Origin: a virus
Taxonomy: Duplodnaviria > Caudoviricetes
DNA length: 64,000 nucleotides
Reading direction: 5' to 3' (one strand)
IMG/VR virus record: IMGVR_UViG_3300013368_000005
Span: 122,591-186,590 of that record
The notes under the pieces are model-generated. The model was given only the letters and a program-made list of their open reading frames with translations. It ran no database searches and had not been told where the DNA came from. Shown piece by piece: positions 6,944 to 62,896 of this stretch. Within the stretch, counting starts at the first letter, position 1, and each line of letters opens with the position of its first letter. The position numbers were made by a program, and so were the translations under genes.

Positions 6944-6998
6944 TATATGTAGTAGAAAATCTCTACTACATATATCTTTGTTTAGGGAGGAGAAAGGT

Positions 6999-9227
6999 AT
7001 GTCTAATAATATAACTTTTGCAGAGGATGTTTCAAAAGCCTCTGATCGTATTGACAACTTAGAACAATGTTTAGCTAAAGGACTATTTATGCCTTTTAAC
7101 AGTTCTACCTCTGGGTCTAGAAACTTGCTATTCTCGACACAGTTAGAACACAAATTACCTCTAATGAGAGGTGAAGTACCATTATTAGGAACAGGATATG
7201 AACCATTATTTGGTGAATATTCATCATCGTTTATTAGAACAGATTCCGAATATGATGTCATAGAAAGGGTAGAAAAATTTGGTCAAATTCCAGGTCATCA
7301 CTATTATTTAATAGTGTTTAATAAAAAGAAACAAGAGTTTGATATGATAGAAAGAAAATCATATGAACACATTACCGAATCGTATGGATATCTATACGAT
7401 AATACAAATATAGATAAATATAAATCAGGTTCATCAATATATGAAGGTGAAGTAATTAGAAAGAGTACTAGTTTTGATGAATTCAATAACAGAAAGGATG
7501 GAGTGAATCTTAATACTGGATATATAAGTTGTGAAAAGACCAAAGAAGACGGTATAATTATATGTGAGAGTGCAAGAAGAAAATTAGCATCTCCACTTAT
7601 AAGAAAAATAAAAATTATACAAAATGATAATGACCTTCCTTTGAATATATATGGAAACGATGAACTATATAAATCATTTCCAGATATAGGTGAAGAAACA
7701 TCTAATAAAATATTATGTGCATTAAGAAGGGAAAAGAAAGAAGAATCTTTATTTTCCTTATCATGTACAAGATTGAAAAATATAATGATGTCAGATGAAA
7801 GATTTATAGCTGAGGGAAAGGTTATAGATATAAATGTATTTTGTAATAATCCTGATAATTTAAATTCAGTATATACATCGCAAATAAAATATTATTATGA
7901 TCAACAACAAGTATTCTTAGAAACTTTTGTAAATGCTACAAAGGAAATTGTAGGTAAATATAAATGTAGCTATGCTTTACAAAAGATGCATTATAATTGT
8001 AAAAAGATTTTGGAAGGCGGGCAATATATCCAAGATAAGCCTTTTAGTAATAATGTAATAGAAATAACTTTATTAGAGGAAAGTTTAGTAAATGTAGGGG
8101 ATAAAATATCTAATAGATATGGAGGTAAAGGAGTTGTATCTTGTATACTTCCAGATCATTTAATGCCTAGAATGGATAATGGACAATATATCGAATTGAT
8201 ATATAATTCATCTACATGTGTAAATAGAGGAAACCCAGGACAATTATATGAAACTTCTATAAATCATATAGGAGGAAGAATAGTAGATTTTGTATCAACT
8301 GGTACTTTAGAATTTGCAGATCAAGTTGAAATGTATCTAGGATTCTTACGTCATCTATCTCCAGATTTATCTGCACATATTGAGAACTCCATGCTACAAT
8401 GGAGTGTAGAAGATCAACGTGTATTTATGGAAGGCGTATTTACTGAAGAAGGTATAGCTGTATCGATGAAACCTATATCTGAAGCTATAGACATAGATAA
8501 ATTAAGATCAATATATAAAGAATTTTCTTTTGCTATGCAAAATAAAATTATTATACCACAAAAAGATTCTATGGGAAATATAAGATATATTCCAGCAAGA
8601 AGAGCTATAACTTGTGGTAAACAATATATTTATAGATTAAAACAATATGCAGAAGAGAAATTCTCAGCAGTTTCTCTATCAGCTACAAATATTAAAAATG
8701 AGAATACGAGAAATGCATCTAAGAAAAATTATAAATCTGCTTATTCTAAAACACCAATAAGATTCGGTGAAATGGAACAAGGAGATTTTGGTCACTTAGG
8801 AATGGAGGTAGTTATTGTTAATCTAATGCTTCATTCTACATCACCACATGGTAGAAGATTGGCAGAAGAATTATTAACAGGAGATCCATTTAGTGTTGAT
8901 ATTAAACTTGATGAAGATTCTAAAAATAGATCTGTTGAAGTTAATAATGCTTTTTTAACAACAATGGGGTTAGAATTAGAATTTGTTAAAGTAAGGAAGG
9001 TACAACAAAGACTTATACAAAAATCATTGGTTACTTTTAAACAACCAACTTCTAATAAGTTAGTACAAGGCGTATGGTTTCCTAAGGAATGGGAAAGATT
9101 AGACCCTGTTGAATTTATAGATGGGTTTAAACATAAAGATACAAGAAAATTCTTGGCATTAAAGTCTATGGTAACATTTGGTAAAAAACTAGATGAGGAG
9201 ACTGGTATGTATAAGAAGGAGGATTAA
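6999..9227 (+). CDS. rpoB: Non-virion RNA polymerase beta subunit, C-terminal half
   Basis: EDGIII, VGDKISNRYGGKGVV, NRGNPGQLYE, GKQYIYRLKQ, RFGEME motifs; start at ATG 6999 after SD. Confidence 0.92.
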   Translation: MSNNITFAEDVSKASDRIDNLEQCLAKGLFMPFNSSTSGSRNLLFSTQLEHKLPLMRGEVPLLGTGYEPLFGEYSSSFIRTDSEYDVIERVEKFGQIPGHHYYLIVFNKKKQEFDMIERKSYEHITESYGYLYDNTNIDKYKSGSSIYEGEVIRKSTSFDEFNNRKDGVNLNTGYISCEKTKEDGIIICESARRKLASPLIRKIKIIQNDNDLPLNIYGNDELYKSFPDIGEETSNKILCALRREKKEESLFSLSCTRLKNIMMSDERFIAEGKVIDINVFCNNPDNLNSVYTSQIKYYYDQQQVFLETFVNATKEIVGKYKCSYALQKMHYNCKKILEGGQYIQDKPFSNNVIEITLLEESLVNVGDKISNRYGGKGVVSCILPDHLMPRMDNGQYIELIYNSSTCVNRGNPGQLYETSINHIGGRIVDFVSTGTLEFADQVEMYLGFLRHLSPDLSAHIENSMLQWSVEDQRVFMEGVFTEEGIAVSMKPISEAIDIDKLRSIYKEFSFAMQNKIIIPQKDSMGNIRYIPARRAITCGKQYIYRLKQYAEEKFSAVSLSATNIKNENTRNASKKNYKSAYSKTPIRFGEMEQGDFGHLGMEVVIVNLMLHSTSPHGRRLAEELLTGDPFSVDIKLDEDSKNRSVEVNNAFLTTMGLELEFVKVRKVQQRLIQKSLVTFKQPTSNKLVQGVWFPKEWERLDPVEFIDGFKHKDTRKFLALKSMVTFGKKLDEETGMYKKED

Positions 9228-9231
9228 TTTT

Positions 9232-11541
9232 ATGAATAGTTTAGAGACTTTATGTTATATCGTAGATAATTTACTTAAAAGTAATCTACAAGTGTTAACT
9301 GAAGAAAATATTAAACTAATAAATGAAATAACTGGTGCTGTGTTAAAGTTAACACAGCATTCAGATTATGATATTCAATGTATGGATAAGATATTATTCT
9401 TATCGAATATACTATGGGAAAATACGGATAGAAATAAATTGCCTTTAGATGATGGCATATATGATTTATTAATAGAATTATATAGAAAATATAATCCTAA
9501 TTTTCAAGTTGGAGCACCATCTATACAGTTTATAAATACAAATGGCTTAGATGGAGAAAAATTTGAAATGCAACCATTAGTAAGGTTTATAGAACAAGAT
9601 AAACTAGAAGATATGTTATTTGCAAATCAAATAGTTCCTGCAACTAAATATACTAAATTAGATATACTACAACCAATGATTTCATTCGCAGATACTAATT
9701 ATATATCTAAACGTATAGTAAATCAAAAACAATTGAATCCAAAATTGGTTGGAACTTTAGATAAGTGTAAATTCGTTTTAAATGCTCAAGCAATAGATAA
9801 AGGGGTATTTAATGATTCTAATGTCAAAGTTCTTGAAAGAGATTTCTTTCAAAAACATATACAACAAGGAATATTAGATCCTAATAGAATATTTTCAATG
9901 CTTTTAGAACTTAAATTTGATGGTGTATCGGTTTCAGCAAAAGTATCAAATAAAGTACATCAAGCAATGACAAGAGGAGATGCGAATAATGAAGTAGCAG
10001 CAGATATAACTCCTATTCTATATGACTATAAGTTTCCAAGAGCAACAGGAATTATTCCAGAAAATGAATGTTTTGATATGAAATTCGAAGCTATTATGAC
10101 TTATTATGATCTTTATAGATATAATATAGCTAGAGGGAAGAATTATAAAAATTGTAGAACAGCTATAATTAGCGTGTTTGGTTCATCAGATGCAGCTAAA
10201 TATAGGGATTATATTACATTAATGCCTATAACGACATCTTTAGATATTGATAGATTATCAGAAATGGAGTTCTTAGATAACTATTATCAGACTGGAGAAA
10301 GAATAAGGTATGCAGTCATATCTGGAACTTATATAGAAATATTATTTCAGATTAAAAAATTTGTAGAAGAAGCAGAATATATGAGATCATTTATTCCATA
10401 TATGTATGATGGAATAGTTGCATCATATTTAGATGAAGATTTAATAAATACTCTTGGTAGAGAGAATTCTATTAATAAATATTCTATGGCTATTAAATTT
10501 AATCCTTTAAAGAAACAGACTATATTTAGAGGATATACGTATGAAATAGGTCAAGATGGTAGTGTAACTCCGATGATACATTATGATCCAGTAGAATTTT
10601 ATGGTACAATACATCCTAAATCTACAGGTCATTCTTATGAGAGATTTAAAACATTAGGATTAAGAATAGGAGATATCATAGATGTTGAATATGTAAATGA
10701 CGTAATGCCTTATGTAACTAAACCAATAAATACTCATAATGATAATAATCAAAATGCATTAGAAAATTTTATAACCCACTGTCCATATTGCCAATCTCAA
10801 TTAGTTATATCAGAATCTGGAAGATCTGTATATTGTAAGAATATAGAATGTTCAGGTAGGCATCTATCTAGGATAGTGGGCACATTTGATAAATTAGATA
10901 TTAAAGATTTCTCTGAAGGGCAATTGAAGAAAATAAATAAATATACATTAACAGAATTACTTCAATTGAAATTAGAAGATGTAGAATTTTTGGGAGATCT
11001 TACAAGTACCAAATTTATACAATCTATGAATGAATTATATCATAGAGAGATTTATGATTTTAATCTAGTTGGTGCCTTAGGGTTTACAAGTGTAGCATCT
11101 AAAACTTGGATGTTAATATTGAATAAAATTTCTTTACAAAAAATGATTAAATTATATTCTGAAGATGTTGATCAATTGAGAAATATAATTGTTTCAATTA
11201 AAGGTATAGGTCCTATTACAGCAGATACAATTGTTAATGAATTTGAATTCTTTATGAATGATTTAATAACTATATGTACATTTCCAAATCTCATAATCAC
11301 TGAGGGAATTAAGTTAGGAAAGAAGATAAGATTTACAGGATTTAGAGATAAAGAGTTAGTAACTAAGTTAGCTTCCCTGGGATATGATATAGGTGAAGGT
11401 TCAGTAACAAAAGATACGGATATATTGTTAATTCCTGTATCAACGTATAGTAGTCCAAAAACTAAAAAGGCTGCTAGTTATGGTGTAAATATTGTTCCAA
11501 TAGATGAATTTAGAGCTGATATGGAACAGTATTTAGCGTAA
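9232..11541 (+). CDS. ligA: NAD-dependent DNA ligase
   Basis: ELKFDG adenylation motif, TRGD, YDGIV, AIKF, OB fold, Cys4 zinc finger, HhH (IKGIGP), BRCT; start at ATG 9232 after SD GGAGG. Confidence 0.92.
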   Translation: MNSLETLCYIVDNLLKSNLQVLTEENIKLINEITGAVLKLTQHSDYDIQCMDKILFLSNILWENTDRNKLPLDDGIYDLLIELYRKYNPNFQVGAPSIQFINTNGLDGEKFEMQPLVRFIEQDKLEDMLFANQIVPATKYTKLDILQPMISFADTNYISKRIVNQKQLNPKLVGTLDKCKFVLNAQAIDKGVFNDSNVKVLERDFFQKHIQQGILDPNRIFSMLLELKFDGVSVSAKVSNKVHQAMTRGDANNEVAADITPILYDYKFPRATGIIPENECFDMKFEAIMTYYDLYRYNIARGKNYKNCRTAIISVFGSSDAAKYRDYITLMPITTSLDIDRLSEMEFLDNYYQTGERIRYAVISGTYIEILFQIKKFVEEAEYMRSFIPYMYDGIVASYLDEDLINTLGRENSINKYSMAIKFNPLKKQTIFRGYTYEIGQDGSVTPMIHYDPVEFYGTIHPKSTGHSYERFKTLGLRIGDIIDVEYVNDVMPYVTKPINTHNDNNQNALENFITHCPYCQSQLVISESGRSVYCKNIECSGRHLSRIVGTFDKLDIKDFSEGQLKKINKYTLTELLQLKLEDVEFLGDLTSTKFIQSMNELYHREIYDFNLVGALGFTSVASKTWMLILNKISLQKMIKLYSEDVDQLRNIIVSIKGIGPITADTIVNEFEFFMNDLITICTFPNLIITEGIKLGKKIRFTGFRDKELVTKLASLGYDIGEGSVTKDTDILLIPVSTYSSPKTKKAASYGVNIVPIDEFRADMEQYLA

Positions 11542-12346: not shown

Positions 12347-12985
12347 ATGGCTATAGTAAGAAAAGGTAAAGTGTTAGGAAAGATGTATGATGTGATAACT
12401 CCTGAAGAATATTCACAGGAACCTGATATATATAATAATAACTTTACAGCTATTCAAAAAGACAATATATTATACCCAATAAGCAAAACAAGTGCTAAAC
12501 CAGGGTTCTTTGTAAAGAACCAAATTGTATCATTTTTTATCGACCCACCTGAGGAAGAAAGAGAACAGTATTCAGCAGATACAGTTATTGACTTTACTCA
12601 AGTAAGCAATATAAAAGAGATGATTGATAAATCCACATCTTTAGAGGATATAGAAAGAAAGATATTATGTACACCAGATAATATCTATGTTCCTTATATG
12701 GATTCTAAAGATGCACCAGAAGTTAGGGGATTAAAAGAAGCTATCGAAGCTAAACATATAGATTTAGATAAATATGAAGATAGATTCGATGGTAACTATA
12801 ATAATGATAGAAGATTACTTAATAAGAATAATATATCATTAGGTAAATATAGAAAAATATCTGATGCTTTAGATATAAAGGTAACACTAATTTTAGAAGA
12901 TAAGCATCCAAATGTACCTAATCCAATGGGTAAAACAATAACAGTAGAATTAACATCTGGAGGTGATGACTCTAGTGATGAATAA
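12347..12985 (+). CDS. Hypothetical protein with possible C-terminal Cro/C1-type HTH
   Basis: RLLNKNNISLGKYRKISDALDIKVTLIL resembles the end of an Xre HTH; overlaps the RNAP beta-N start. Confidence 0.55.
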   Translation: MAIVRKGKVLGKMYDVITPEEYSQEPDIYNNNFTAIQKDNILYPISKTSAKPGFFVKNQIVSFFIDPPEEEREQYSADTVIDFTQVSNIKEMIDKSTSLEDIERKILCTPDNIYVPYMDSKDAPEVRGLKEAIEAKHIDLDKYEDRFDGNYNNDRRLLNKNNISLGKYRKISDALDIKVTLILEDKHPNVPNPMGKTITVELTSGGDDSSDE

Positions 12986-14699
12986 TATATCACAATATCA
13001 AATAATTAAACAATATAATGATACTCATAGAGAACCATTTAATAATGAATTATTTGTAAGGGATGAAAAAGATATAATCGAATGCCTTCAAAAAGTTATA
13101 CTATCTTGTCAGAGAAATCATTACTTTACATTGAGAGTAGAAAGTTTTAAGATAATAGATAATTATGAAGAAATGATGGCTATACTCGCAAGGAATGAGG
13201 AAGAAGGACTTAAGAATAAAAATAAGAAGAAGGTAAATCAGTATGAATATGTAAACTTAAAAGATACTGATATGGTTCTAATGATAGTCACCTATTATAT
13301 AGAAGCTAAAGGGAAATCACAATATCTTGATGTATATATATTAATACCTAAAATTGTAGATAAATATTACTTTAGAATATATGGTAATTTATATTGTGCT
13401 AGTTTGCAAGTTGTAGATGCTAGTACTTATAATAACAATTATTCTAGTAATGCAAAAAAACAGGTAGTAACAGAAAAGACGACTTTCCAACCTATAAGGA
13501 TATATAGAAATCTGGCTTTACTTACAACGGTAGATGGCGAGGATTTAAAGACAGTTTACTATACATCGCGTATGTTTAATAAGTCATTTTGTGCGTTTAA
13601 ATATATCTTAGCAAGATATGGATTGTACGGAACTATAAACTTTACAGGAATAACATGTATATCTATATTAGATAAAATACCAGATAATAAGGATATGCAT
13701 AATTTATATGTATTCGAAAAGGAAGGTATTTATATATCTATTCCTAAAGAAATATTTGATAATGATTATACAACACAATCTTTAATATTAACTTTATGGA
13801 GTTCTATCCATAAAGATACAAAATATCAAGATTTATTTACACAAGTATATTGGTTAAAATCATTAGGTGGAGAGTTTAATACATTTACACCAGAAAAAGG
13901 ATATGATTTACTAAAATCATTAGAAAATATTTATGATATAATCACTAAGGAAGATTTACACTTACCAGAAGATGTAAAGAAAGATGTATACGGTGTTTTA
14001 TTTTGGTTAATTAGAGAATTTGGTAATCTTAGAAATAAAGATAACCTAGATATTTCTACTAAGAAAGTAAGATGTGCAGAATATATAGCGTCTTTATATG
14101 CTATGAAAATGGCACAAGGTATATATAGACTATCAGATAAACGTACTAATGTATCTATTGAAAGTATTAGGAAAGTTATACTTATAAAACCTACTTTCTT
14201 AATAGAATCTATATCAAGATGTAACTTGGTTAACTATAGAAATTTAGTTAATGACTTGGATGCTTTGACAGCATTAAAGTATACTTATAAGGGTATATCA
14301 GGTATAGGAGAGAAAGGAAATAATTCTGTACCTAAAGCATATAGAAGTATTCATGTGTCACATTTGGGAAGAGTAGATGTAAACTCATCATCTAAATCAG
14401 ACCCAGGTATGTCTGGTCTTATATGTCCATTCACAAAATTATATAATGGTTCATTCTCTGAATTTGAAGAACCAAATACATGGGATGAACAGTTTAGTAG
14501 TTTAATGGATAATTATAAAAAAACAGTTGGCTTAAAAGAATTGATAACATTTAAGAAGAATATATTAGGAGAACAAAATTTAGAAGAGGATGAAAAATTT
14601 GTTGATAGTTGTATAGATAATATGCAAACTTTAATAAATCCAGTCCGCTTTGTTGAAAACACAGCACAATATGTTGTAGAAGATTCTGTAAGTATATAA
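12963..14699 (+). CDS. rpoB: Non-virion RNA polymerase beta subunit, N-terminal half (true start probably 12975 or 12978)
   Basis: YFRIYGNLY...LQ; RSIHVSHLGRVDVNSSSKSDPGMSG matches RpoB [23 protein letters not shown]. Confidence 0.85.
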   Translation: MMTLVMNNISQYQIIKQYNDTHREPFNNELFVRDEKDIIECLQKVILSCQRNHYFTLRVESFKIIDNYEEMMAILARNEEEGLKNKNKKKVNQYEYVNLKDTDMVLMIVTYYIEAKGKSQYLDVYILIPKIVDKYYFRIYGNLYCASLQVVDASTYNNNYSSNAKKQVVTEKTTFQPIRIYRNLALLTTVDGEDLKTVYYTSRMFNKSFCAFKYILARYGLYGTINFTGITCISILDKIPDNKDMHNLYVFEKEGIYISIPKEIFDNDYTTQSLILTLWSSIHKDTKYQDLFTQVYWLKSLGGEFNTFTPEKGYDLLKSLENIYDIITKEDLHLPEDVKKDVYGVLFWLIREFGNLRNKDNLDISTKKVRCAEYIASLYAMKMAQGIYRLSDKRTNVSIESIRKVILIKPTFLIESISRCNLVNYRNLVNDLDALTALKYTYKGISGIGEKGNNSVPKAYRSIHVSHLGRVDVNSSSKSDPGMSGLICPFTKLYNGSFSEFEEPNTWDEQFSSLMDNYKKTVGLKELITFKKNILGEQNLEEDEKFVDSCIDNMQTLINPVRFVENTAQYVVEDSVSI

Positions 14700-20768: not shown

Positions 20769-21725
20769 CTAATATTCTGCTAATCTATTATCATTTATTA
20801 CTATTAATGGATAAGTAATATCTAAGTTAGTATTCCTTGCAATACCATTTCTTTTATCGATAGATAAATCATCTATAAACATAGAATCTGGTTTAGTTAC
20901 ATTAGGAACACTCTCTCCTGTAGTTACATCCATTACATCAAACCATCTTTGACCTGTAGAACCATCGTATACTACTACAGTCTTTATATTACTGTCTTGT
21001 TCTAATCTCATCATATTTTGAGCTGGTGACATGTTTTGAGCATAATTTGCATAAGGATCTTCTTGGGCTATACCAGTTCTAATTATATTAGATGCAGAAA
21101 TAGGACTTGTAAAATCTGCTACATTCATTGGTATAGATGGTCCATTATAAGTTCCTGATGGTGTATTAATATATGCTTGATATAAGTCCATAATTCTCTT
21201 ATCATCATCAACTTTATCTTCAGACATTTTGAGGTCTTTAATTCTTTTCATGTCCAAGTTATGACAATCTGTAATAGTTTTATTTAACTCTCTGATTGCT
21301 GTAACTTTTGTTCCTATTAGAGTACTAGCAGTACTGGTAAGCATAGCAATATAATCATATTTCTTTTTTAATGTTTTAGAACCTTTAATCAAATCTAATT
21401 CAGTTTTGATATCATTCTGAAAAACATCTATTTGAGCTACTGAATTTCTAAGTAAATTATTCGTTTCTGAATAACTTTCTAAATATGGTTGATTAGATTG
21501 GTATAAAGGTAAATCGGAATCATCTTGATTTGCTAATATTATATCGTTTCCATCACTTAACCTCTTAGTTGATACTGACTTACCTTTCTTTTTCTTCTTT
21601 GTAGATAGGTCCATATCTGAACCTATCAAATCTAACGGAATAGGCTCTGCCTCTGTTGTAAAGAAATCAAAGTTTACTCCACTAGAACCCCCTTTTTCTT
21701 CTTTAAAAGTAACCATTTTCTTCAT
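20769..21725 (-). CDS. Hypothetical coiled-coil protein with N-terminal MKKMVTF motif
   Basis: SD AAGGAGG; AACA-N6-TA at 21746-21757. Confidence 0.7.
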   Translation of the reverse strand: MKKMVTFKEEKGGSSGVNFDFFTTEAEPIPLDLIGSDMDLSTKKKKKGKSVSTKRLSDGNDIILANQDDSDLPLYQSNQPYLESYSETNNLLRNSVAQIDVFQNDIKTELDLIKGSKTLKKKYDYIAMLTSTASTLIGTKVTAIRELNKTITDCHNLDMKRIKDLKMSEDKVDDDKRIMDLYQAYINTPSGTYNGPSIPMNVADFTSPISASNIIRTGIAQEDPYANYAQNMSPAQNMMRLEQDSNIKTVVVYDGSTGQRWFDVMDVTTGESVPNVTKPDSMFIDDLSIDKRNGIARNTNLDITYPLIVINDNRLAEY

Positions 21726-23933: not shown

Positions 23934-24058
23934 GATTTTCACTATACTGTAAATAAACTAGCATTAATCGTGCTAGTTTATTTTTTATTTTGTATGCAAC
24001 ATATATATAATGCGTAAAGTGACCACTAAAGGTTAATAAGGAAGAAAGAAGTGATTTT

Positions 24059-26011
24059 ATGTTGCTAAAAAATTATATAGAAGGGTCAGATTTGACATTA
24101 TTAAATACTTATTATTTATATCCACAAAAGAATGAAGAAACAGGAAAATGGAGTAAAGATTCAATCACTCTGATTTATAAAGATAATGTTACGGGACAAA
24201 AACATCATGAAACAATACATGAGCCAGATTATGAATTCTATATGGCAAAACCAGAAGAAATGATTGATCATAATATGCTCTTTATAGAAAAAGAGAAAGT
24301 ACAAAAAATATCATCACCATATAGTAAATTAGAAAAAACAATAGCAGAAGTTACCGACAATCTACCATTTTATTATGATAATATAAAAAATGGTAATAGA
24401 AGAGCAAATCAAAGATTACATGACGATACGAGAATATTTGGTTCTGATAGTAATATAGAAGAGCACTATAGATTTAGATTTGATAATGAATATACAAATA
24501 GCATCATACCTATATCTAAAGCATATTTCGATATAGAAGCAGATACTATTAATATGAAGGGAGATTTCCCAGAGCCAGGAGAGTGTCCAGTAAATGCAGT
24601 AACACTCATTAACGAAGCAACAAATAAAGTTTATGTATTTCTATTAAGAAATCCAAATAATCCTTTAATAGAAGAATTTGAAAAATCTATAAATAATGAT
24701 TTATTTGTAGAATTAAAAGACTTTATAAGAGATTCAGTTGGAGGGTATAAAAAAGAGATAAAATATGGATTAGATAAATTACAATATGAGTTTCTTTTTT
24801 ATGATGAAGAAATAGGTTTATTACAAGAGTTATTTTTAGCAATAAATACATTACAACCAGACTTTATAATGGCATGGAACATGGCATTCGATATGCCATA
24901 TATGATTCAGAGAATTAAAAATTTAGGTTATTCAGCAGAATCTATAATCTGTCATCCAGATTTTGAGGTTAAGGTTTGTAAATATAAAATAGATGAAAAT
25001 GCAGATATATTATCCGAAAGGGGGGATGATGCAACAATTAGTTCTTATACAAAATATATAGATCAATTAATACAATTTGCATCTAGAAGAAAAGGTCAAG
25101 GAGTATTCTCAAACTTTAAATTAGACTCCATAGGAAATCTAACTGTAGGGGTTAAAAAATTAGATTATTCTCATATCACTACTAGTATAGCAAAATTACC
25201 ATATTTAAATTATAAGGTGTTTGTTTTTTATAATATCATAGACGTAATTGTTCAAAAATGTATAGAATCAAAAGTTGGTGATATAGACTATACTTTTAAT
25301 AAATGTCTAATAAATAATACAAGATATAATAAAGCACATAGACAAACTGTATATCTCGTAAATAGAGGAAAAAAAGAGTTTTATACAGATGGGTTTATAA
25401 TGGGAAATAATACAAATAGGAAAAACGCTAAGCCAACAGAAAAATTCCCAGGTGCATTTGTTGCAGACCCAATGAAATTAGATGATTATGCTAAATTAAA
25501 ACGATATGGATTGCCAGTAAACATATTTAATAATTCTGATGACTTTGACTATAAATCACTATATCCAAGTATAATGAGAGAATTTAATATTGCACCTCAT
25601 ACACAAATAGGAAGAATCGATATATTGGATAAGATGTATAACAATGAAGATCCATTTAATAATAAATATTATAATAGAGGTGGAGCATTTATAGAAGATT
25701 TACATTCGGGGGTATTTTTACAATTTGGTCATAGGTGGTTAGGACTAGCACAGTATAGCGATTTATATAAGGATATATTAGAATACTTTACTAAAAGAGC
25801 ATTTAGTGCTAATCCAGTGTTTATGTTTAACGATAAAGGTCAAGTTCCTATGGTTAGATTTAGGCAAGAAGGACAAATGATGAAGATGGTTTCATTTGAT
25901 GAAGGTAAACAAAGAATGGTTTATAAATATTATCAAAAACCAGATTATCAAAATATATATGATAATATAAATAGAAATGGGGTTGCTATAGGTGTTGGTA
26001 CAATTGAATAA
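24059..26011 (+). CDS. Family-B DNA polymerase, N-terminal subunit (3'-5' exonuclease plus motif A)
   Basis: ExoI YFDIEAD, ExoII AWNMAFD, ExoIII YNIID, motif A DFDYKSLYPS; lacks motifs B and C. Confidence 0.9.
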   Translation: MLLKNYIEGSDLTLLNTYYLYPQKNEETGKWSKDSITLIYKDNVTGQKHHETIHEPDYEFYMAKPEEMIDHNMLFIEKEKVQKISSPYSKLEKTIAEVTDNLPFYYDNIKNGNRRANQRLHDDTRIFGSDSNIEEHYRFRFDNEYTNSIIPISKAYFDIEADTINMKGDFPEPGECPVNAVTLINEATNKVYVFLLRNPNNPLIEEFEKSINNDLFVELKDFIRDSVGGYKKEIKYGLDKLQYEFLFYDEEIGLLQELFLAINTLQPDFIMAWNMAFDMPYMIQRIKNLGYSAESIICHPDFEVKVCKYKIDENADILSERGDDATISSYTKYIDQLIQFASRRKGQGVFSNFKLDSIGNLTVGVKKLDYSHITTSIAKLPYLNYKVFVFYNIIDVIVQKCIESKVGDIDYTFNKCLINNTRYNKAHRQTVYLVNRGKKEFYTDGFIMGNNTNRKNAKPTEKFPGAFVADPMKLDDYAKLKRYGLPVNIFNNSDDFDYKSLYPSIMREFNIAPHTQIGRIDILDKMYNNEDPFNNKYYNRGGAFIEDLHSGVFLQFGHRWLGLAQYSDLYKDILEYFTKRAFSANPVFMFNDKGQVPMVRFRQEGQMMKMVSFDEGKQRMVYKYYQKPDYQNIYDNINRNGVAIGVGTIE

Positions 26012-26621
26012 ACAACAATTAAAAGAGTTAATAACCGAAGCAAAAAAAATCAAGTCTGATATAATTTATATCAGACCTGATGGAAATATATATGGTACAG
26101 ATATAAATTTCTTTCATCTAAAATCAAGTACGACATCAATATTGGGTTTTGAATTATGCTATCTGTCTAAAGATATGGATGCTTTTATTAAAAATATAGA
26201 TGATATAGCAGTGGAGAAAATAATTATAAATGGTATAAATATGATAGCAGAAAATGGTGCAGTAGTTCAAGTATTAAATCCATTTTCTATAAATGAAATT
26301 AATAATAAAATTATTAGATTATCATATATGATAAATAATCCAATAATTTATACAAATGAATCATTACAAGAAGATGATGTATTTCAATCTATAATATCTT
26401 TAAAAACGTCGGATGGTTCTACTATATATAAAATTGATTATATTTATATGATGTCTGTATTTAAAACCTTATTACCAATTAATAAAGGAGATAAAGTCTT
26501 ATTAAATATAATTGATATAGGTCAAGAAAGATTTTTATCAAATTTCACTGTAGTAAAAAAGAAAAATGTTATAATAAATATATACTATATTATGAGATAT
26601 TTAAATACATCAAATCGATAA
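25992..26621 (+). CDS. Hypothetical protein overlapping the DNA polymerase gene; candidate sliding clamp
   Basis: GTG start, 209 aa; N-terminal LKELITEAKKIKSDIIYIRPDGNIYGTD resembles a PCNA/gp45-type helix-strand start. Confidence 0.5.
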   Translation: MLVQLNKQQLKELITEAKKIKSDIIYIRPDGNIYGTDINFFHLKSSTTSILGFELCYLSKDMDAFIKNIDDIAVEKIIINGINMIAENGAVVQVLNPFSINEINNKIIRLSYMINNPIIYTNESLQEDDVFQSIISLKTSDGSTIYKIDYIYMMSVFKTLLPINKGDKVLLNIIDIGQERFLSNFTVVKKKNVIINIYYIMRYLNTSNR

Positions 26622-57929: not shown

Positions 57930-60062
57930 TTACAATTTTAATATATTTGTATAATTATTATTATCATTTCCTCTATAAATATTAAGTTGTTCTATTGGGA
58001 AATGTTTTGCATTATCATTTATAATAGTTTTATAATCTATAAATTCTGTTAGCCATTTTGGAATTTCTACATTCTTTGGAACTGCAACACAATCGATTCC
58101 AGATGCATAATCTTTTTGTTTCATTAATTCAGTTAATTTTTGAAACAATTCTGGTTCTTCTATTTCAAAATGTGTAATTTTTTTAGGGTTTATAATTACT
58201 TTAAGCAAATCTATACCATTTCTAGATGATAAATCTATTGCTTCTAAGCCTTCATCTTTTATAGCATTCCAAACTATTGAAGCTTTTATACCTTGAATTC
58301 TCATAGGATTTTCATAGTTATTTATAGATTTTATTGTAACTGGTTTATAAAATTTCTTTTCACCACTCTCAAGAGATCGATATATTTCATTTTCGAATTT
58401 AGCTAATTCTTTTATAAGTCTTAATTCATCTATTTCGTCACAAGTTAATACTTCTTCGTACATAATCTCTTGTAATCTCTCTTGGGTTCTCTTATTTAGA
58501 TTTGATTTACCCATCATAAGACCTTTTATGTCTTGTTGTTTACCTTTAGGAACTATATTTCCTTCTTGAAGTTCTTGTATACTTGCATAATTTTTTTTTA
58601 CATCCATTAATAATATTCTTTTGAATAAAAATTCATTTTTCATTATTAATAAACATTTTTTATTTTTATCATAAGAATTAGAATGCATAGTGAATTTTTC
58701 CATATAATCATTTATCACATTGCCTATGCAATACGCTAATATATTTATTATAGAGTATCTTACCCCTTCTTGTGGGATAATTTTAATTGGATTAATAGCT
58801 TTACTCATTTGAACAATCTCATCTTGGTAGAAATCGTAATCTACTGGTTCATCTAAAATCTCAACCATTTTTTGACCATCTATTAAATCCCCAAATTCAT
58901 CTTTTTCTAGAAATCCGACCATAGGAACCATTTCATGCTTGATTTTTAAATCTATATTTTGTATTTTTTCAAATACAAATCTATACCATGCATCTAAAGA
59001 TATTATACAACTATCAGTATCTGTTATTATACAAACTTTCCTAATCATATTATCATATCTATCCAATCTATCAATAATTTGATGAGAGTAGTATACATAT
59101 TCCATTATAATATCATTAAGTTCGTCTAGTTCTACACTTATTTCTTTCGGTGGTTTATTAGGGTCTAGAAATGGAGATTCTAATTTACTAAGTATATATA
59201 TTAAAGCTCTTTCCATAGATTTGTTTTCCATAAATGAAAATAAGTTATTTTTATAATATAATCTATTTAAATCTTGTTGGGTTAAATTACATATTATTCC
59301 CCAAACTATATCCATATCTTCCTCTGATGGAATATAATTAAATCCACTTGTAGTCATTAATTTATAGAAGCATTCTGCATGAGTTATATTTTCATCTAGT
59401 ATAAGTCTATCGTCATATTTTCTATGCTCCTGACATACATTATCTATATAAGTAACTATTTCATCTAATGAACCGAAAAGTACGTTATTCGCTAAGAACA
59501 TTTCAAATTGTAAACCAGCCGCTGATATACAAGCTCTTCCTTGAGTAGTAACAGAAGCTGCAACATGAAGATTATAGTATAAACAACTATACATTCCGCA
59601 TGCACCATAGAATCCATTGGCATCAATTTTTGCTAGTAATTGCAACAAATTGAATTTTTCAAATTCCTCAGAACCTTTTGGATACTTAAACATTTCTTTC
59701 TTATAAATATTTCTACCTTCCATAAATGTTTCAAGGAGTTTAGCTATTGGGTTTGGAGCTTCAGCATGTTTCTTAAACATGACTCCATAAGGCGTAATAA
59801 TTGGTTCTCTTGTCATAACATATTCCGCTAAATGCAATACATCTATATTAATCTGCTTATGTTTATAATTATTATCTATTACTGCTTTTCCATTTTTCAT
59901 TCTTGAAATAATAGAATAATCTAAAGCATCTATTAATTCATCATTTGATAATGTTGGAAATGAAAGTTTTAATAACCTCATTGCCACCTTTTTATATTCG
60001 TTTACAATCTTCATTTCAAGTATTTCTTTTTGTGAATCATTAAATTTATTAAATGAACTCAT
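57930..60062 (-). CDS. Family-B DNA polymerase, C-terminal subunit (motifs B and C)
   Basis: Motif B KIDANGFYG, VTTQGR, motif C TDTDS, KKNY, IKG. Confidence 0.9.
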   Translation of the reverse strand: MSSFNKFNDSQKEILEMKIVNEYKKVAMRLLKLSFPTLSNDELIDALDYSIISRMKNGKAVIDNNYKHKQINIDVLHLAEYVMTREPIITPYGVMFKKHAEAPNPIAKLLETFMEGRNIYKKEMFKYPKGSEEFEKFNLLQLLAKIDANGFYGACGMYSCLYYNLHVAASVTTQGRACISAAGLQFEMFLANNVLFGSLDEIVTYIDNVCQEHRKYDDRLILDENITHAECFYKLMTTSGFNYIPSEEDMDIVWGIICNLTQQDLNRLYYKNNLFSFMENKSMERALIYILSKLESPFLDPNKPPKEISVELDELNDIIMEYVYYSHQIIDRLDRYDNMIRKVCIITDTDSCIISLDAWYRFVFEKIQNIDLKIKHEMVPMVGFLEKDEFGDLIDGQKMVEILDEPVDYDFYQDEIVQMSKAINPIKIIPQEGVRYSIINILAYCIGNVINDYMEKFTMHSNSYDKNKKCLLIMKNEFLFKRILLMDVKKNYASIQELQEGNIVPKGKQQDIKGLMMGKSNLNKRTQERLQEIMYEEVLTCDEIDELRLIKELAKFENEIYRSLESGEKKFYKPVTIKSINNYENPMRIQGIKASIVWNAIKDEGLEAIDLSSRNGIDLLKVIINPKKITHFEIEEPELFQKLTELMKQKDYASGIDCVAVPKNVEIPKWLTEFIDYKTIINDNAKHFPIEQLNIYRGNDNNNYTNILKL

Positions 60063-60772: not shown

Positions 60773-62896
60773 ATGTTATATTTAGAGAATTATGGACCAT
60801 ATGCCGAATTGGTTCAAAAAAGGAGAATGGTAATAGATGTAAATTCTATTACCATTAATAACTGGCAAATGCATTTTGACTCAGTATTAAATATAATGAG
60901 AGATGCAATAGAAACAGACTTAATGAATAATGCATTTATCACTATTCAATTCGCACCTGGAATTGATTGTGAATTAACTGTACCAGATTATTGGTTTAAT
61001 ATACTAATGTGGTATTTATTAGTAAGAACTAATAAAAGAATAGAACCTAGACATATATTCTTTAATGAAAATATGACTAGAAGAGATATAAAGAATTATG
61101 TTGATGAATTCTTTATAGAAGAAAATAGAACTTCTTATGAAAATATAGAATTAAATAATATAATAGATGATTGCTTAACTGAATTTAACCGTATAGATGA
61201 ATTTGCATTCTTCTTGGCAAATACAATAAATCTTGAAGATTTTATAGACTTAATGAATAATGTCCCAAGATTTGATCAATTAATACATTCAGATTTATCA
61301 AATGTTCCATTAGATGAAGTTAAATCAGAAGGTTTAAAACTTACCGATGAAGCAATAAGTATTATAAAGAATTCAGAACACTGTCTATCAAATTTCTTTA
61401 GAGCAGGGGAAGGCGTTAACAAGAAACAGTTTAAAGAATTTGCAATAAATACGGGAACTAAACCAGATGGTAACGGCGGTGCATTCCCTGTAGTAGTAAA
61501 TACAAATTTATTAACAGGTGGAGCAAATGATACTGCTTCATTCTTAATTGAATCAGCTACAGGTAGAACAGCACAAACAATAGTTGAAGGAAACGTTGGA
61601 CCTTCAGGATATTTCGCTAGATTGTTAGGGTTAAATGCTACAGATACATTTATAAATCCTAATCCAAATTATATTTGTAATACAAAAAACTTTCAGATTA
61701 TAGAGATTAAAAACGATTTAATTTTAAATAAATTTGAAAATAGATATTATAGATTGAACCCTAATGGAGTTGAATATAAACTTACTAAAAAAGATAGACA
61801 TTTAATAGGAAAAACACTATATTTCCGTTCACCTATGACATGTGCATCAATGGCTGAAGGTCATGGAATATGCTACAGATGTTATGGGGATTTAGCTCAC
61901 ACTAATAAAGACATTGCTATAGGAAAGATGTCTTCAGAGATACTAGCATCTGTATTTACTCAGATGATGTTATCCGCTAAACACTTATTAGAATCTTCTA
62001 TTAAATCAATGACATGGAATAAAGAATTCGGAGATTTATTTGAAGTTGAATTTAACTTTGTAAAATTAAATAGCGATTTTGATTTTTCTGGATATAAAAT
62101 ATTAATGGATGCTGATAGTATAACTCCAGATAGCGAAGATGAAGATCAATTACAATGTGATTTTAATGAACATGTAACTTCATTTGATGTATTATTTCCT
62201 AATGGTGTAATAGTAAATATGCATACTGCTGAATTAGATTTAATATATTTAACACCAGAAATTACAGAATATATTAGAGAAACAGCAACTAAATTAGATG
62301 GAAAAATAACTATAGATCTAGGAAAATTATCAGAGTTTGATGTTCCGTTATTCGCATTAAAGATTCAAAATGATGATATGTCAAAAGCACTTGAAAGGGT
62401 TAAAAATAAATTTGATAAAGTTGATACTATAAAGCAAGAAGATAGAAATTCATTATTGCAATCATTAATGGAAGTAGTAATAGATATAGGTTTAGATATA
62501 TTATCTGTACATTGTGAAGTATTATTAGCAATGCAGTTGAGAAATGTTGATGATATATTAGATTTACCACAATGGCAATATCCAGATGAACCTTATAAAA
62601 TGTTGACATTAAGGCAATCTCTTGATAAACATCCATCGGTTACTATATCTTTAAGTTTTGAGAAAATAGGAAAATTATTATACAACCCATTAACATTCAG
62701 AAAGAATAAAGCATCATTTATGGATTTATTCTTCATGGAACAACCTCAAATGTATTTAGCTAATAAAGCAGAGATTCAGAAATCTAAAGCAGATGATTTT
62801 GGAATGAAGAAAATGATTTATTTTAAAGAACCAGAAGAATTAAACACTGTAGATATAGATGATTTGGATGATTTAGATATAGTAGAAGAAATATAA
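60773..62896 (+). CDS. rpoC: Non-virion RNA polymerase beta' subunit, C-terminal half
   Basis: Bridge helix GRTAQ...SGYFARLL, Zn site RSPMTC...ICYRCYG, trigger loop TQMMLSAKH, VHCEVLL, SLSFE. Confidence 0.92.
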   Translation: MLYLENYGPYAELVQKRRMVIDVNSITINNWQMHFDSVLNIMRDAIETDLMNNAFITIQFAPGIDCELTVPDYWFNILMWYLLVRTNKRIEPRHIFFNENMTRRDIKNYVDEFFIEENRTSYENIELNNIIDDCLTEFNRIDEFAFFLANTINLEDFIDLMNNVPRFDQLIHSDLSNVPLDEVKSEGLKLTDEAISIIKNSEHCLSNFFRAGEGVNKKQFKEFAINTGTKPDGNGGAFPVVVNTNLLTGGANDTASFLIESATGRTAQTIVEGNVGPSGYFARLLGLNATDTFINPNPNYICNTKNFQIIEIKNDLILNKFENRYYRLNPNGVEYKLTKKDRHLIGKTLYFRSPMTCASMAEGHGICYRCYGDLAHTNKDIAIGKMSSEILASVFTQMMLSAKHLLESSIKSMTWNKEFGDLFEVEFNFVKLNSDFDFSGYKILMDADSITPDSEDEDQLQCDFNEHVTSFDVLFPNGVIVNMHTAELDLIYLTPEITEYIRETATKLDGKITIDLGKLSEFDVPLFALKIQNDDMSKALERVKNKFDKVDTIKQEDRNSLLQSLMEVVIDIGLDILSVHCEVLLAMQLRNVDDILDLPQWQYPDEPYKMLTLRQSLDKHPSVTISLSFEKIGKLLYNPLTFRKNKASFMDLFFMEQPQMYLANKAEIQKSKADDFGMKKMIYFKEPEELNTVDIDDLDDLDIVEEI

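Follow-up and report, generated by a model that had tools for sequence, protein, structure and literature searches.

The end segment of a 186.6-kb phage record in IMG/VR (IMGVR_UViG_3300013368_000005), a 64-kb stretch of DNA with a GC content of 27% that was analyzed as a whole and is called the window below, encodes a protein of 209 amino acids for which structure prediction strongly supports a DNA sliding-clamp fold and which is very probably an accessory protein of the phage DNA polymerase. Its gene overlaps the end of the gene for PolB-N, the N-terminal half of a split family-B DNA polymerase, in a phage distantly related to Bacillus phage AR9/PBS1 and to the Staphylococcus jumbo phages. 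The reading that we favor, tentatively and at slightly below an even chance, is that this protein works without a clamp loader and without closing into a ring, as a subunit of the split polymerase for processivity and docking; DNA binding, stimulation of the polymerase, peptide binding and the oligomeric state are the parts of this reading that we infer.

A predicted clamp fold next to the polymerase gene

The features on which the argument is built are the following.

24059..26011, plus strand: PolB-N (DNAP-N), the exonuclease and motif A half of the split family-B DNA polymerase (Pfam DNA_pol_B_exo1 and DNA_pol_B; phrog_3011)
25992..26621, plus strand: the gene for the clamp-fold protein, 209 amino acids, with domain 1 at about residues 1–95 and domain 2 at about residues 96–209 (from the open reading frame (ORF), the AlphaFold2 (AF2) model, the VIA and Foldseek searches and 236 homologues)
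26004..26006, plus strand: an alternative TTG start, giving the 205-residue form used by the public database gene call

The AF2 model of the protein, built on an alignment of 103 homologous sequences, has a predicted local distance difference test score (pLDDT) of 96 and a predicted template modeling score (pTM) of 0.90. Domain 1 of the model contains a strand, a helix and three strands (β-α-β-β-β) twice in succession, which is the full clamp pattern, and domain 2 is a reduced version of it. Clamp domains are characteristically made of two such units and occur in tandem, curving into an arc that has its sheets on the outer and its helices on the inner face. In a VIA structural search against 48,161 PDB representatives, each of the first 39 ranks went to a sliding clamp or a viral processivity factor, and the next fold, an unrelated one, had a Z-score of 4.3. 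The best match was T4 gp45 (Z 10.7, root mean square deviation 4.1 Å, 185 of the 209 residues), the 9-1-1, PCNA and beta clamps scored at Z 8–10, and the clamp matches, which also include UL44, UL42, PF-8 and BMRF1, together span residues 1–209. Foldseek returned 133 matches in the PDB at E ≤ 1e-3, and those listed are all beta clamp, 9-1-1 or PCNA chains. When Foldseek was run against BFVD, the best matches were uncharacterized gut 'Myoviridae sp.' proteins (template modeling score 0.74–0.81), with clamps of the gp45, beta and PCNA types and one 557-residue 'Ribonuclease HI' after them. Since the AF2 model and the three structural searches agree, the divergent DNA-clamp fold that had been proposed for this ORF in the original prediction, which was made from the sequence without database searches, is borne out by the models, and the alternative that the fold is not that of a clamp fails against PDB matches that, as listed, are clamps without exception. 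The N-terminal helix singled out in that prediction (residues 7–18, LKELITEAKKIK) and the end strand ...INIYYIM (194–202) are both seen in the model. The proposed division into two halves, each opening with a helix, stands in so far as there are two domains split near residue 95, but the segment FQSIISLK (129–135), which had been assigned to the start of the second half, is the second helix of domain 2, which opens with a helix at residues 97–113.

Searches at the sequence level gave no such match. Neither the whole of Pfam nor PHROGs contains a match for the protein, or one that the 103 family members have in common; 50,697 phage records searched with tblastn yielded nothing, and a profile search against PDB sequences returned no clamp, the best hit, to a sphingomyelinase (E 0.41), being no more than noise. 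In the opposite direction, PCNA_N (PF00705) and DNA_pol3_beta (PF00712) matched nothing in the genome at E ≤ 1, whereas control genomes do match, and DNA_PPF, the Pfam family of gp45, had no match in the genome either. A profile of the first half of the protein compared with the second half gave no signal of internal duplication; for clamps, an internal duplication that is invisible in the sequence is usual.

An exhaustive HMMER search of 1.8 billion metagenomic cluster representatives identified 236 homologous representatives at E ≤ 1e-3, 47 of them at E ≤ 1e-10, with lengths that are mostly 195–225 residues; a word-based search had returned nothing beyond the protein itself. In all seven relatives used for gene context (L003 and L009–L014) the homologue lies directly 3' of a PolB-N gene encoding about 647 residues, and the portal gene comes next wherever the contig reaches far enough. 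The homologue overlaps the end of PolB-N by 1–38 nucleotides in five of the seven and starts 1–6 nucleotides after it in the other two. Because so many representatives match and the gene order is kept in every one of these contexts, the ORF is a conserved gene rather than a chance one, and its translation is probably coupled to that of PolB-N. In the complete relative G001 (100% complete; its PolB-N is 53% identical to that of the phage studied here), the clamp-fold protein aligns in the C-terminal half alone, at 36% identity over 89 residues, the median for orthologues of the two phages being 40%.

The gene begins with GTG, overlaps the PolB-N stop codon (26009–26011), which thus falls inside it, by 20 nucleotides and is read in the +1 frame. 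In homologues that start with ATG, five to seven strand-like residues precede helix 1, as they do in the GTG form, and one relative shows the identical 20-nucleotide overlap; for these reasons the GTG at 25992 is the better start, and the 209-residue ORF overlapping the PolB-N stop, as first described, is preferred over the 205-residue call. An inverted repeat of 15 pairs with a minus-strand T-run lies within the gene at 26049–26081 (codons 20–30) and was scored as terminator-like; it may be a chance occurrence in AT-rich DNA or an antisense terminator.

A shared putative docking motif and its carriers

A six-residue motif, [KQ][PKS][ML][VI]xF, is strongly enriched in the proteins of this phage. 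In the non-overlapping ORF set of the genome it occurs 12 times, compared with 0.9 ± 1.0 in 300 residue shuffles (shuffle maximum 5), and the copies lie mostly within 10 residues of the N- or C-terminus, apart from two in an insertion of the DNA ligase. The main carriers within the window, among which the PolB-N tail has looser forms of the motif, are as follows.

25844..25930, plus strand: PolB-N tail, with the tandem motifs VPMVRF and MKMVSF and a degenerate third, QRMVYKY
6978..9227, plus strand: orthologue of AR9 g089, the C-terminal beta subunit of the non-virion RNA polymerase (RNAP), with KSLVTF at 9021–9038 and KSMVTF at 9162–9179
9193..11541, plus strand: NAD-dependent DNA ligase, with QPLVRF at 9571–9588 and QPMISF at 9670–9687
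60773..62896, plus strand: RNAP beta-type subunit (phrog_3015), with KKMIYF near the C-terminus at 62807–62824

In the g089 orthologue the homology to AR9 stops at residue 671, and both motifs are on the added tail beyond that point. The PolB-N tails of six further relatives each carry two to four tandem copies of some motif of the hydrophobic-x-F/Y kind. G001 has no copy of [KQ][PKS][ML][VI]xF at all; instead it has LFxK[FILV], found 21 times against 4.9 ± 2.4 expected and again at termini. In five orthologous pairs, namely the PolB-N tail, the ligase, the RNAP beta subunit, a 610-residue protein and a 104-residue protein, each genome has its own motif at the same place. Thus the G001 ligase carries the G001 motif at the equivalent position, and the G001 orthologue of the RNAP beta-type subunit ends in KPLFYKI. 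The cleanest example of a C-terminal tag swap is the 610-residue protein (G000:C1:107252-109084, outside the window), which ends in ...QPMVTFKRDVA and whose G001 orthologue, 51% identical, ends in ...IRLFQKIS.

Clamps are classic receptors for short terminal peptides, and hold a client peptide in a hydrophobic pocket near the C-terminus or between the domains. A motif that sits on termini and is exchanged in a relative calls for one receptor that co-evolves with it, and the clamp-fold protein is a reasonable choice as the best local candidate. In T4, gp45 uses one hydrophobic patch on each protomer to bind the polymerase, the ligase, gp33 and gp55 (PMC7892883). A T4-like coupling of replication and late transcription, which the original prediction had also put forward, would have as its sole basis the motifs on two beta-type subunits of RNAP, namely the orthologue of the C-terminal beta subunit of the non-virion RNAP and one other.

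Two further proteins were noted in this connection. A 273-residue protein without family match (G000:C1:46905-47726, outside the window) has KPMVKF at residue 7, its gene being next but one from that for RNase HI. A 578-residue protein encoded at 12963–14699 on the plus strand matches phrog_2943 ('polymerase'), has no Pfam match and is not the PolB-C half; the copy in this phage is without the motif, and the G001 orthologue ends in the docking motif IPLFHKI.

A loader-free subunit or a ring

In the mechanism that we propose, a stand-alone two-domain clamp-fold protein would be produced along with the N-terminal half of the split polymerase. It would need no loader and would act as a processivity subunit that binds the DNA duplex as this leaves the polymerase, with a mode of action like that of the clamp domain of PhiKZ Rhc and of herpes simplex virus 1 UL42. 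The hydrophobic pocket of the protein would be the receptor for [KQ][PKS][ML][VI]xF, and docking of the motif in this pocket would tether PolB-N, through its tandem copies, as well as the ligase, the late RNAP and others to replicating DNA. We lean to a loader-free, non-ring subunit because no loader was found, because there is a precedent in the sister group and because the family includes forms of only 168–179 residues.

A clamp loader of the RFC type was found neither in this record, which is 75% complete, nor in G001. The search of the genome for a clamp-loader AAA+ protein, proposed together with the original prediction, yielded a single AAA+ protein of another kind (G000:C1:74655-75809, outside the window; L006:892-2046). 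This protein of 384 residues is Cdc48/VCP/BCS1-like, with an AAA module at residues 204–330 behind a 200-residue N-domain that is weakly similar to BCS1_N, and with no collar; among solved structures Cdc48/VCP and BCS1 are closest to it, and phrog_7485, of unknown function, is its best PHROG match. It was considered as a clamp loader and ruled out on its architecture and closest solved relatives, the weak PHROG matches to 'clamp loader' spanning the generic AAA core only. It is conserved in G001 and AR9, and its orthologue is the only AAA+ protein of G001. A search of MarsHill also gave no clamp-loader match (phrog_168).

The precedent comes from chimalliviruses. In PhiKZ, synthesis by the split DNAP-N and DNAP-C is raised by a single copy of Rhc, in which an RNase H is joined to a clamp-derived domain that contacts the thumb and the duplex product and is without ring-forming elements (2026 preprint, PMC13648687), and the Rhc of Goslar is needed for late transcription in a role that is separable (2026 preprint, PMC13648698). 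The system described here is like that of PhiKZ and Goslar Rhc (PhiKZ gp155, phrog_3265) in that a clamp-derived module accompanies a split DNAP-N/DNAP-C in a jumbo phage that has multisubunit RNAPs and is without a loader; a role in holding the product duplex is likely, and a link to late transcription is possible (PMC13648687, PMC13648698). It differs in that the protein stands alone, its 209 residues being all clamp fold, whereas in Rhc the clamp-derived part is a C-terminal domain of about 280 residues in an RNase H fusion; in that the gene is joined to that for DNAP-N; and in that Rhc is reported to be without ring-forming elements, whereas the present model aligns with nearly all of gp45. 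The RNase HI of this phage is itself a stand-alone protein of 246 residues without a clamp domain (G000:C1:45649-46389, outside the window; L005:1426-2166), and its match to phrog_3265, the Rhc family, is confined to the RNase H region. Comparison of the family profile with PhiKZ gp155 by hhalign gave a probability of 0.3%, that is, no sequence similarity.

Loader-free clamp folds are also known from the herpesvirus factors UL42, UL44, BMRF1 and PF-8, which act as monomers or dimers on a viral polymerase and match the model at VIA Z 5.7–7.1; unlike the protein described here, they are larger, belong to eukaryotic viruses and have mostly a single client, and they score below the ring clamps. 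The short forms make up about 10% of the listed family representatives and, as far as the alignment indicates, have lost about 30 residues from the second half of domain 1, which would make them hard to place in a closed ring of six domains.

Several points weigh against the loader-free, non-ring reading. The best structural match is the ring-forming gp45, which lies above the non-ring factors UL42 (Z 6.5) and UL44 (Z 7.1). A hub with many clients and three tandem motifs on PolB-N would suit a trimeric ring at least as well. The argument from the short forms comes from an alignment and not from a model, neither a clamp family nor Rhc could be linked to the protein by sequence, and the record of the phage's own genome is incomplete. 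Binding, DNA contact and activity are, moreover, presumed. A complex prediction with three copies, made with the alignment, scored 0.00; it gives no verdict and says nothing for or against a ring.

The strongest alternative, which we regard as a serious but rather doubtful possibility, is a true clamp of the gp45/PCNA kind, in which a closed homotrimer with three peptide pockets would encircle DNA and carry the polymerase, the ligase and the late RNAP as in the T4 model. Such a ring would get onto DNA by being threaded over the ends, by opening itself or with the help of an unrecognized or host loader. In its favor, T4/RB69 gp45 (PDB 6drt chain A) is the top match over both domains, with the 9-1-1, PCNA and beta clamps placed above the non-ring herpesvirus factors; it is a two-domain clamp of similar size (228 residues, compared with 209), and the client set of PolB, ligase and RNAP subunits, with short peptides on the polymerase, ligase and transcription proteins, mirrors that of gp45 (PMC7892883). 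PolB-N has two clear motifs and a degenerate third, and its relatives have two to four. On the other side, gp45 depends on the gp44/62 loader, whereas nothing RFC-like is present in this record or in G001; the short family members seem to be without part of domain 1; and in the related chimalliviruses the clamp derivative does not form a ring (PMC13648687). The resemblance to gp45 is limited further by the lack of a DNA_PPF match and by an identity of 13% in the structural alignment, by the placement of the motifs on the tail of the N-terminal polymerase half and not at the thumb's C-terminus, and by a motif that is not the same in the two related phages for which whole genomes were compared.

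An unlikely third explanation is that the clamp fold has another main job, as a 9-1-1-like scaffold for repair or recombination working with the SbcCD-type nuclease encoded nearby, as a dedicated late-transcription factor or as a decoy for clients of the host beta clamp. The Rad9/Rad1/Hus1 chains almost equal gp45 as structural matches (Z 10.1 and 8.8), SbcC is encoded within the same conserved block of genes, and the transcription role of Goslar Rhc is separable from replication (PMC13648698). The motif of this phage also bears a loose likeness to the motifs of bacterial beta clamps, which are of the QLxLF type. Yet the gene overlaps or abuts PolB-N in every relative seen, the densest array of motifs is that of PolB-N, and the change of motif between related phages favors a receptor of the phage over one of the host. 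Two last readings are that the ORF is non-coding or arose by chance, and that a programmed frameshift joins its product to PolB-N; the +1-frame overlap and the non-ATG start would suit either, but the first is scarcely credible with 236 homologous representatives and a confident fold, and the fusion was rejected, since relatives with their own ATG starts, varied overlaps (in five) and a stop followed by a start (in two) indicate that there is no conserved shift site.

The AR9-like lineage

AR9, BpSp and MarsHill have a block collinear with the one found here, SbcC / small genes / PolB-N / x / portal / virion protein / tail sheath, and the PolB-N of the phage studied here is 31% identical to AR9 g132. 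The slot x between PolB-N and portal, filled here by the clamp-fold gene, is occupied in these phages by the hypothetical proteins AR9 g129, BpSp gp205 and MarsHill gp139. AR9 g129 and BpSp gp205 are homologous to each other (33% identity, E 4e-29). Pairwise and profile comparisons of the clamp family with AR9 g129, AR9 g131, MarsHill gp139 and BpSp gp205 were insignificant, a word search found no wider homologues of g129, and the AF2 model of g129 is unreliable (pLDDT 48); with no sequence similarity and such a model, homology of g129 to the clamp family is unproven. In a protein-atlas feature search g129 touches a cluster in which 10% of the members carry gp45-slide_C (score 0.91), which is a lead only. 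Among the BFVD matches of the clamp-fold model, those of 255 and 259 residues may be the proteins of BpSp and of a Staphylococcus phage. In AR9 the DnaQ-like exonuclease g131 and the small membrane protein g130 lie between PolB-N and g129 (L001:7676-8519), and both are absent from the phage studied here.

Jumbo phages of the PhiKZ/AR9 type were described by Iyer et al. as lacking a classical sliding clamp (PMC7824862), and the clamp-derived domain of Rhc was shown to serve the split polymerase of chimalliviruses only in October 2026 (PMC13648687, PMC13648698). In the literature that we searched, a stand-alone clamp is not described for AR9-like phages. The family reported here would offer the AR9-like branch a candidate for the part that it is missing, free-standing, linked to the polymerase gene and independent of a loader, and 236 clusters of 'hypothetical' proteins gain an annotation that can be tested. 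In its proposed working the modeled protein resembles gp45, Rhc or UL42, and it is outside their sequence families, as the profile matches fail and there is neither a loader nor an RNase H fusion.

It is conceivable, although we would not go so far as to expect it, that AR9-like jumbo phages possess a private and fast-changing docking code, in which one loader-free clamp-fold protein reads a lineage-specific six-residue tag on the polymerase, the ligase, the late RNAP and other proteins. If so, replication, repair and late transcription would be physically coupled on the phage DNA, and the receptor and all of its tags would change together between related phages. Should the motif indeed be read, the phages would offer a compact system for the study of a hub and about ten clients with a co-changing docking code, and a test of whether clamp-coupled late transcription of the T4 type extends to phages with multisubunit RNAPs of their own.

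Neighboring genes and other observations

Three further features of the window relate to the polymerase.

57930..60062, minus strand: PolB-C (DNAP-C), the other half of the polymerase (phrog_2927 and phrog_262, DNA polymerase), with an internal VPMVGF
23951..23983, plus strand: terminator-like hairpin 5' of PolB-N, from a consensus scan only
20769..21725, minus strand: conserved gene for a protein of 318 residues, not assigned to a family and divergent from PolB-N, whose product begins MKKMVTF (motif at residue 2)

The hairpin would set apart PolB-N and the clamp gene as a single unit. A gene for 314–325 residues on the opposite strand stands beside PolB-N in every relative with enough context. 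The record is labeled 'provirus' in IMG/VR; its gene content, with two sets of RNAP subunits and a split PolB, is that of a virulent-type AR9-like jumbo phage, and CheckV puts the completeness of the whole record at 75%. The same clamp protein was also found on another contig, of 230 kb.

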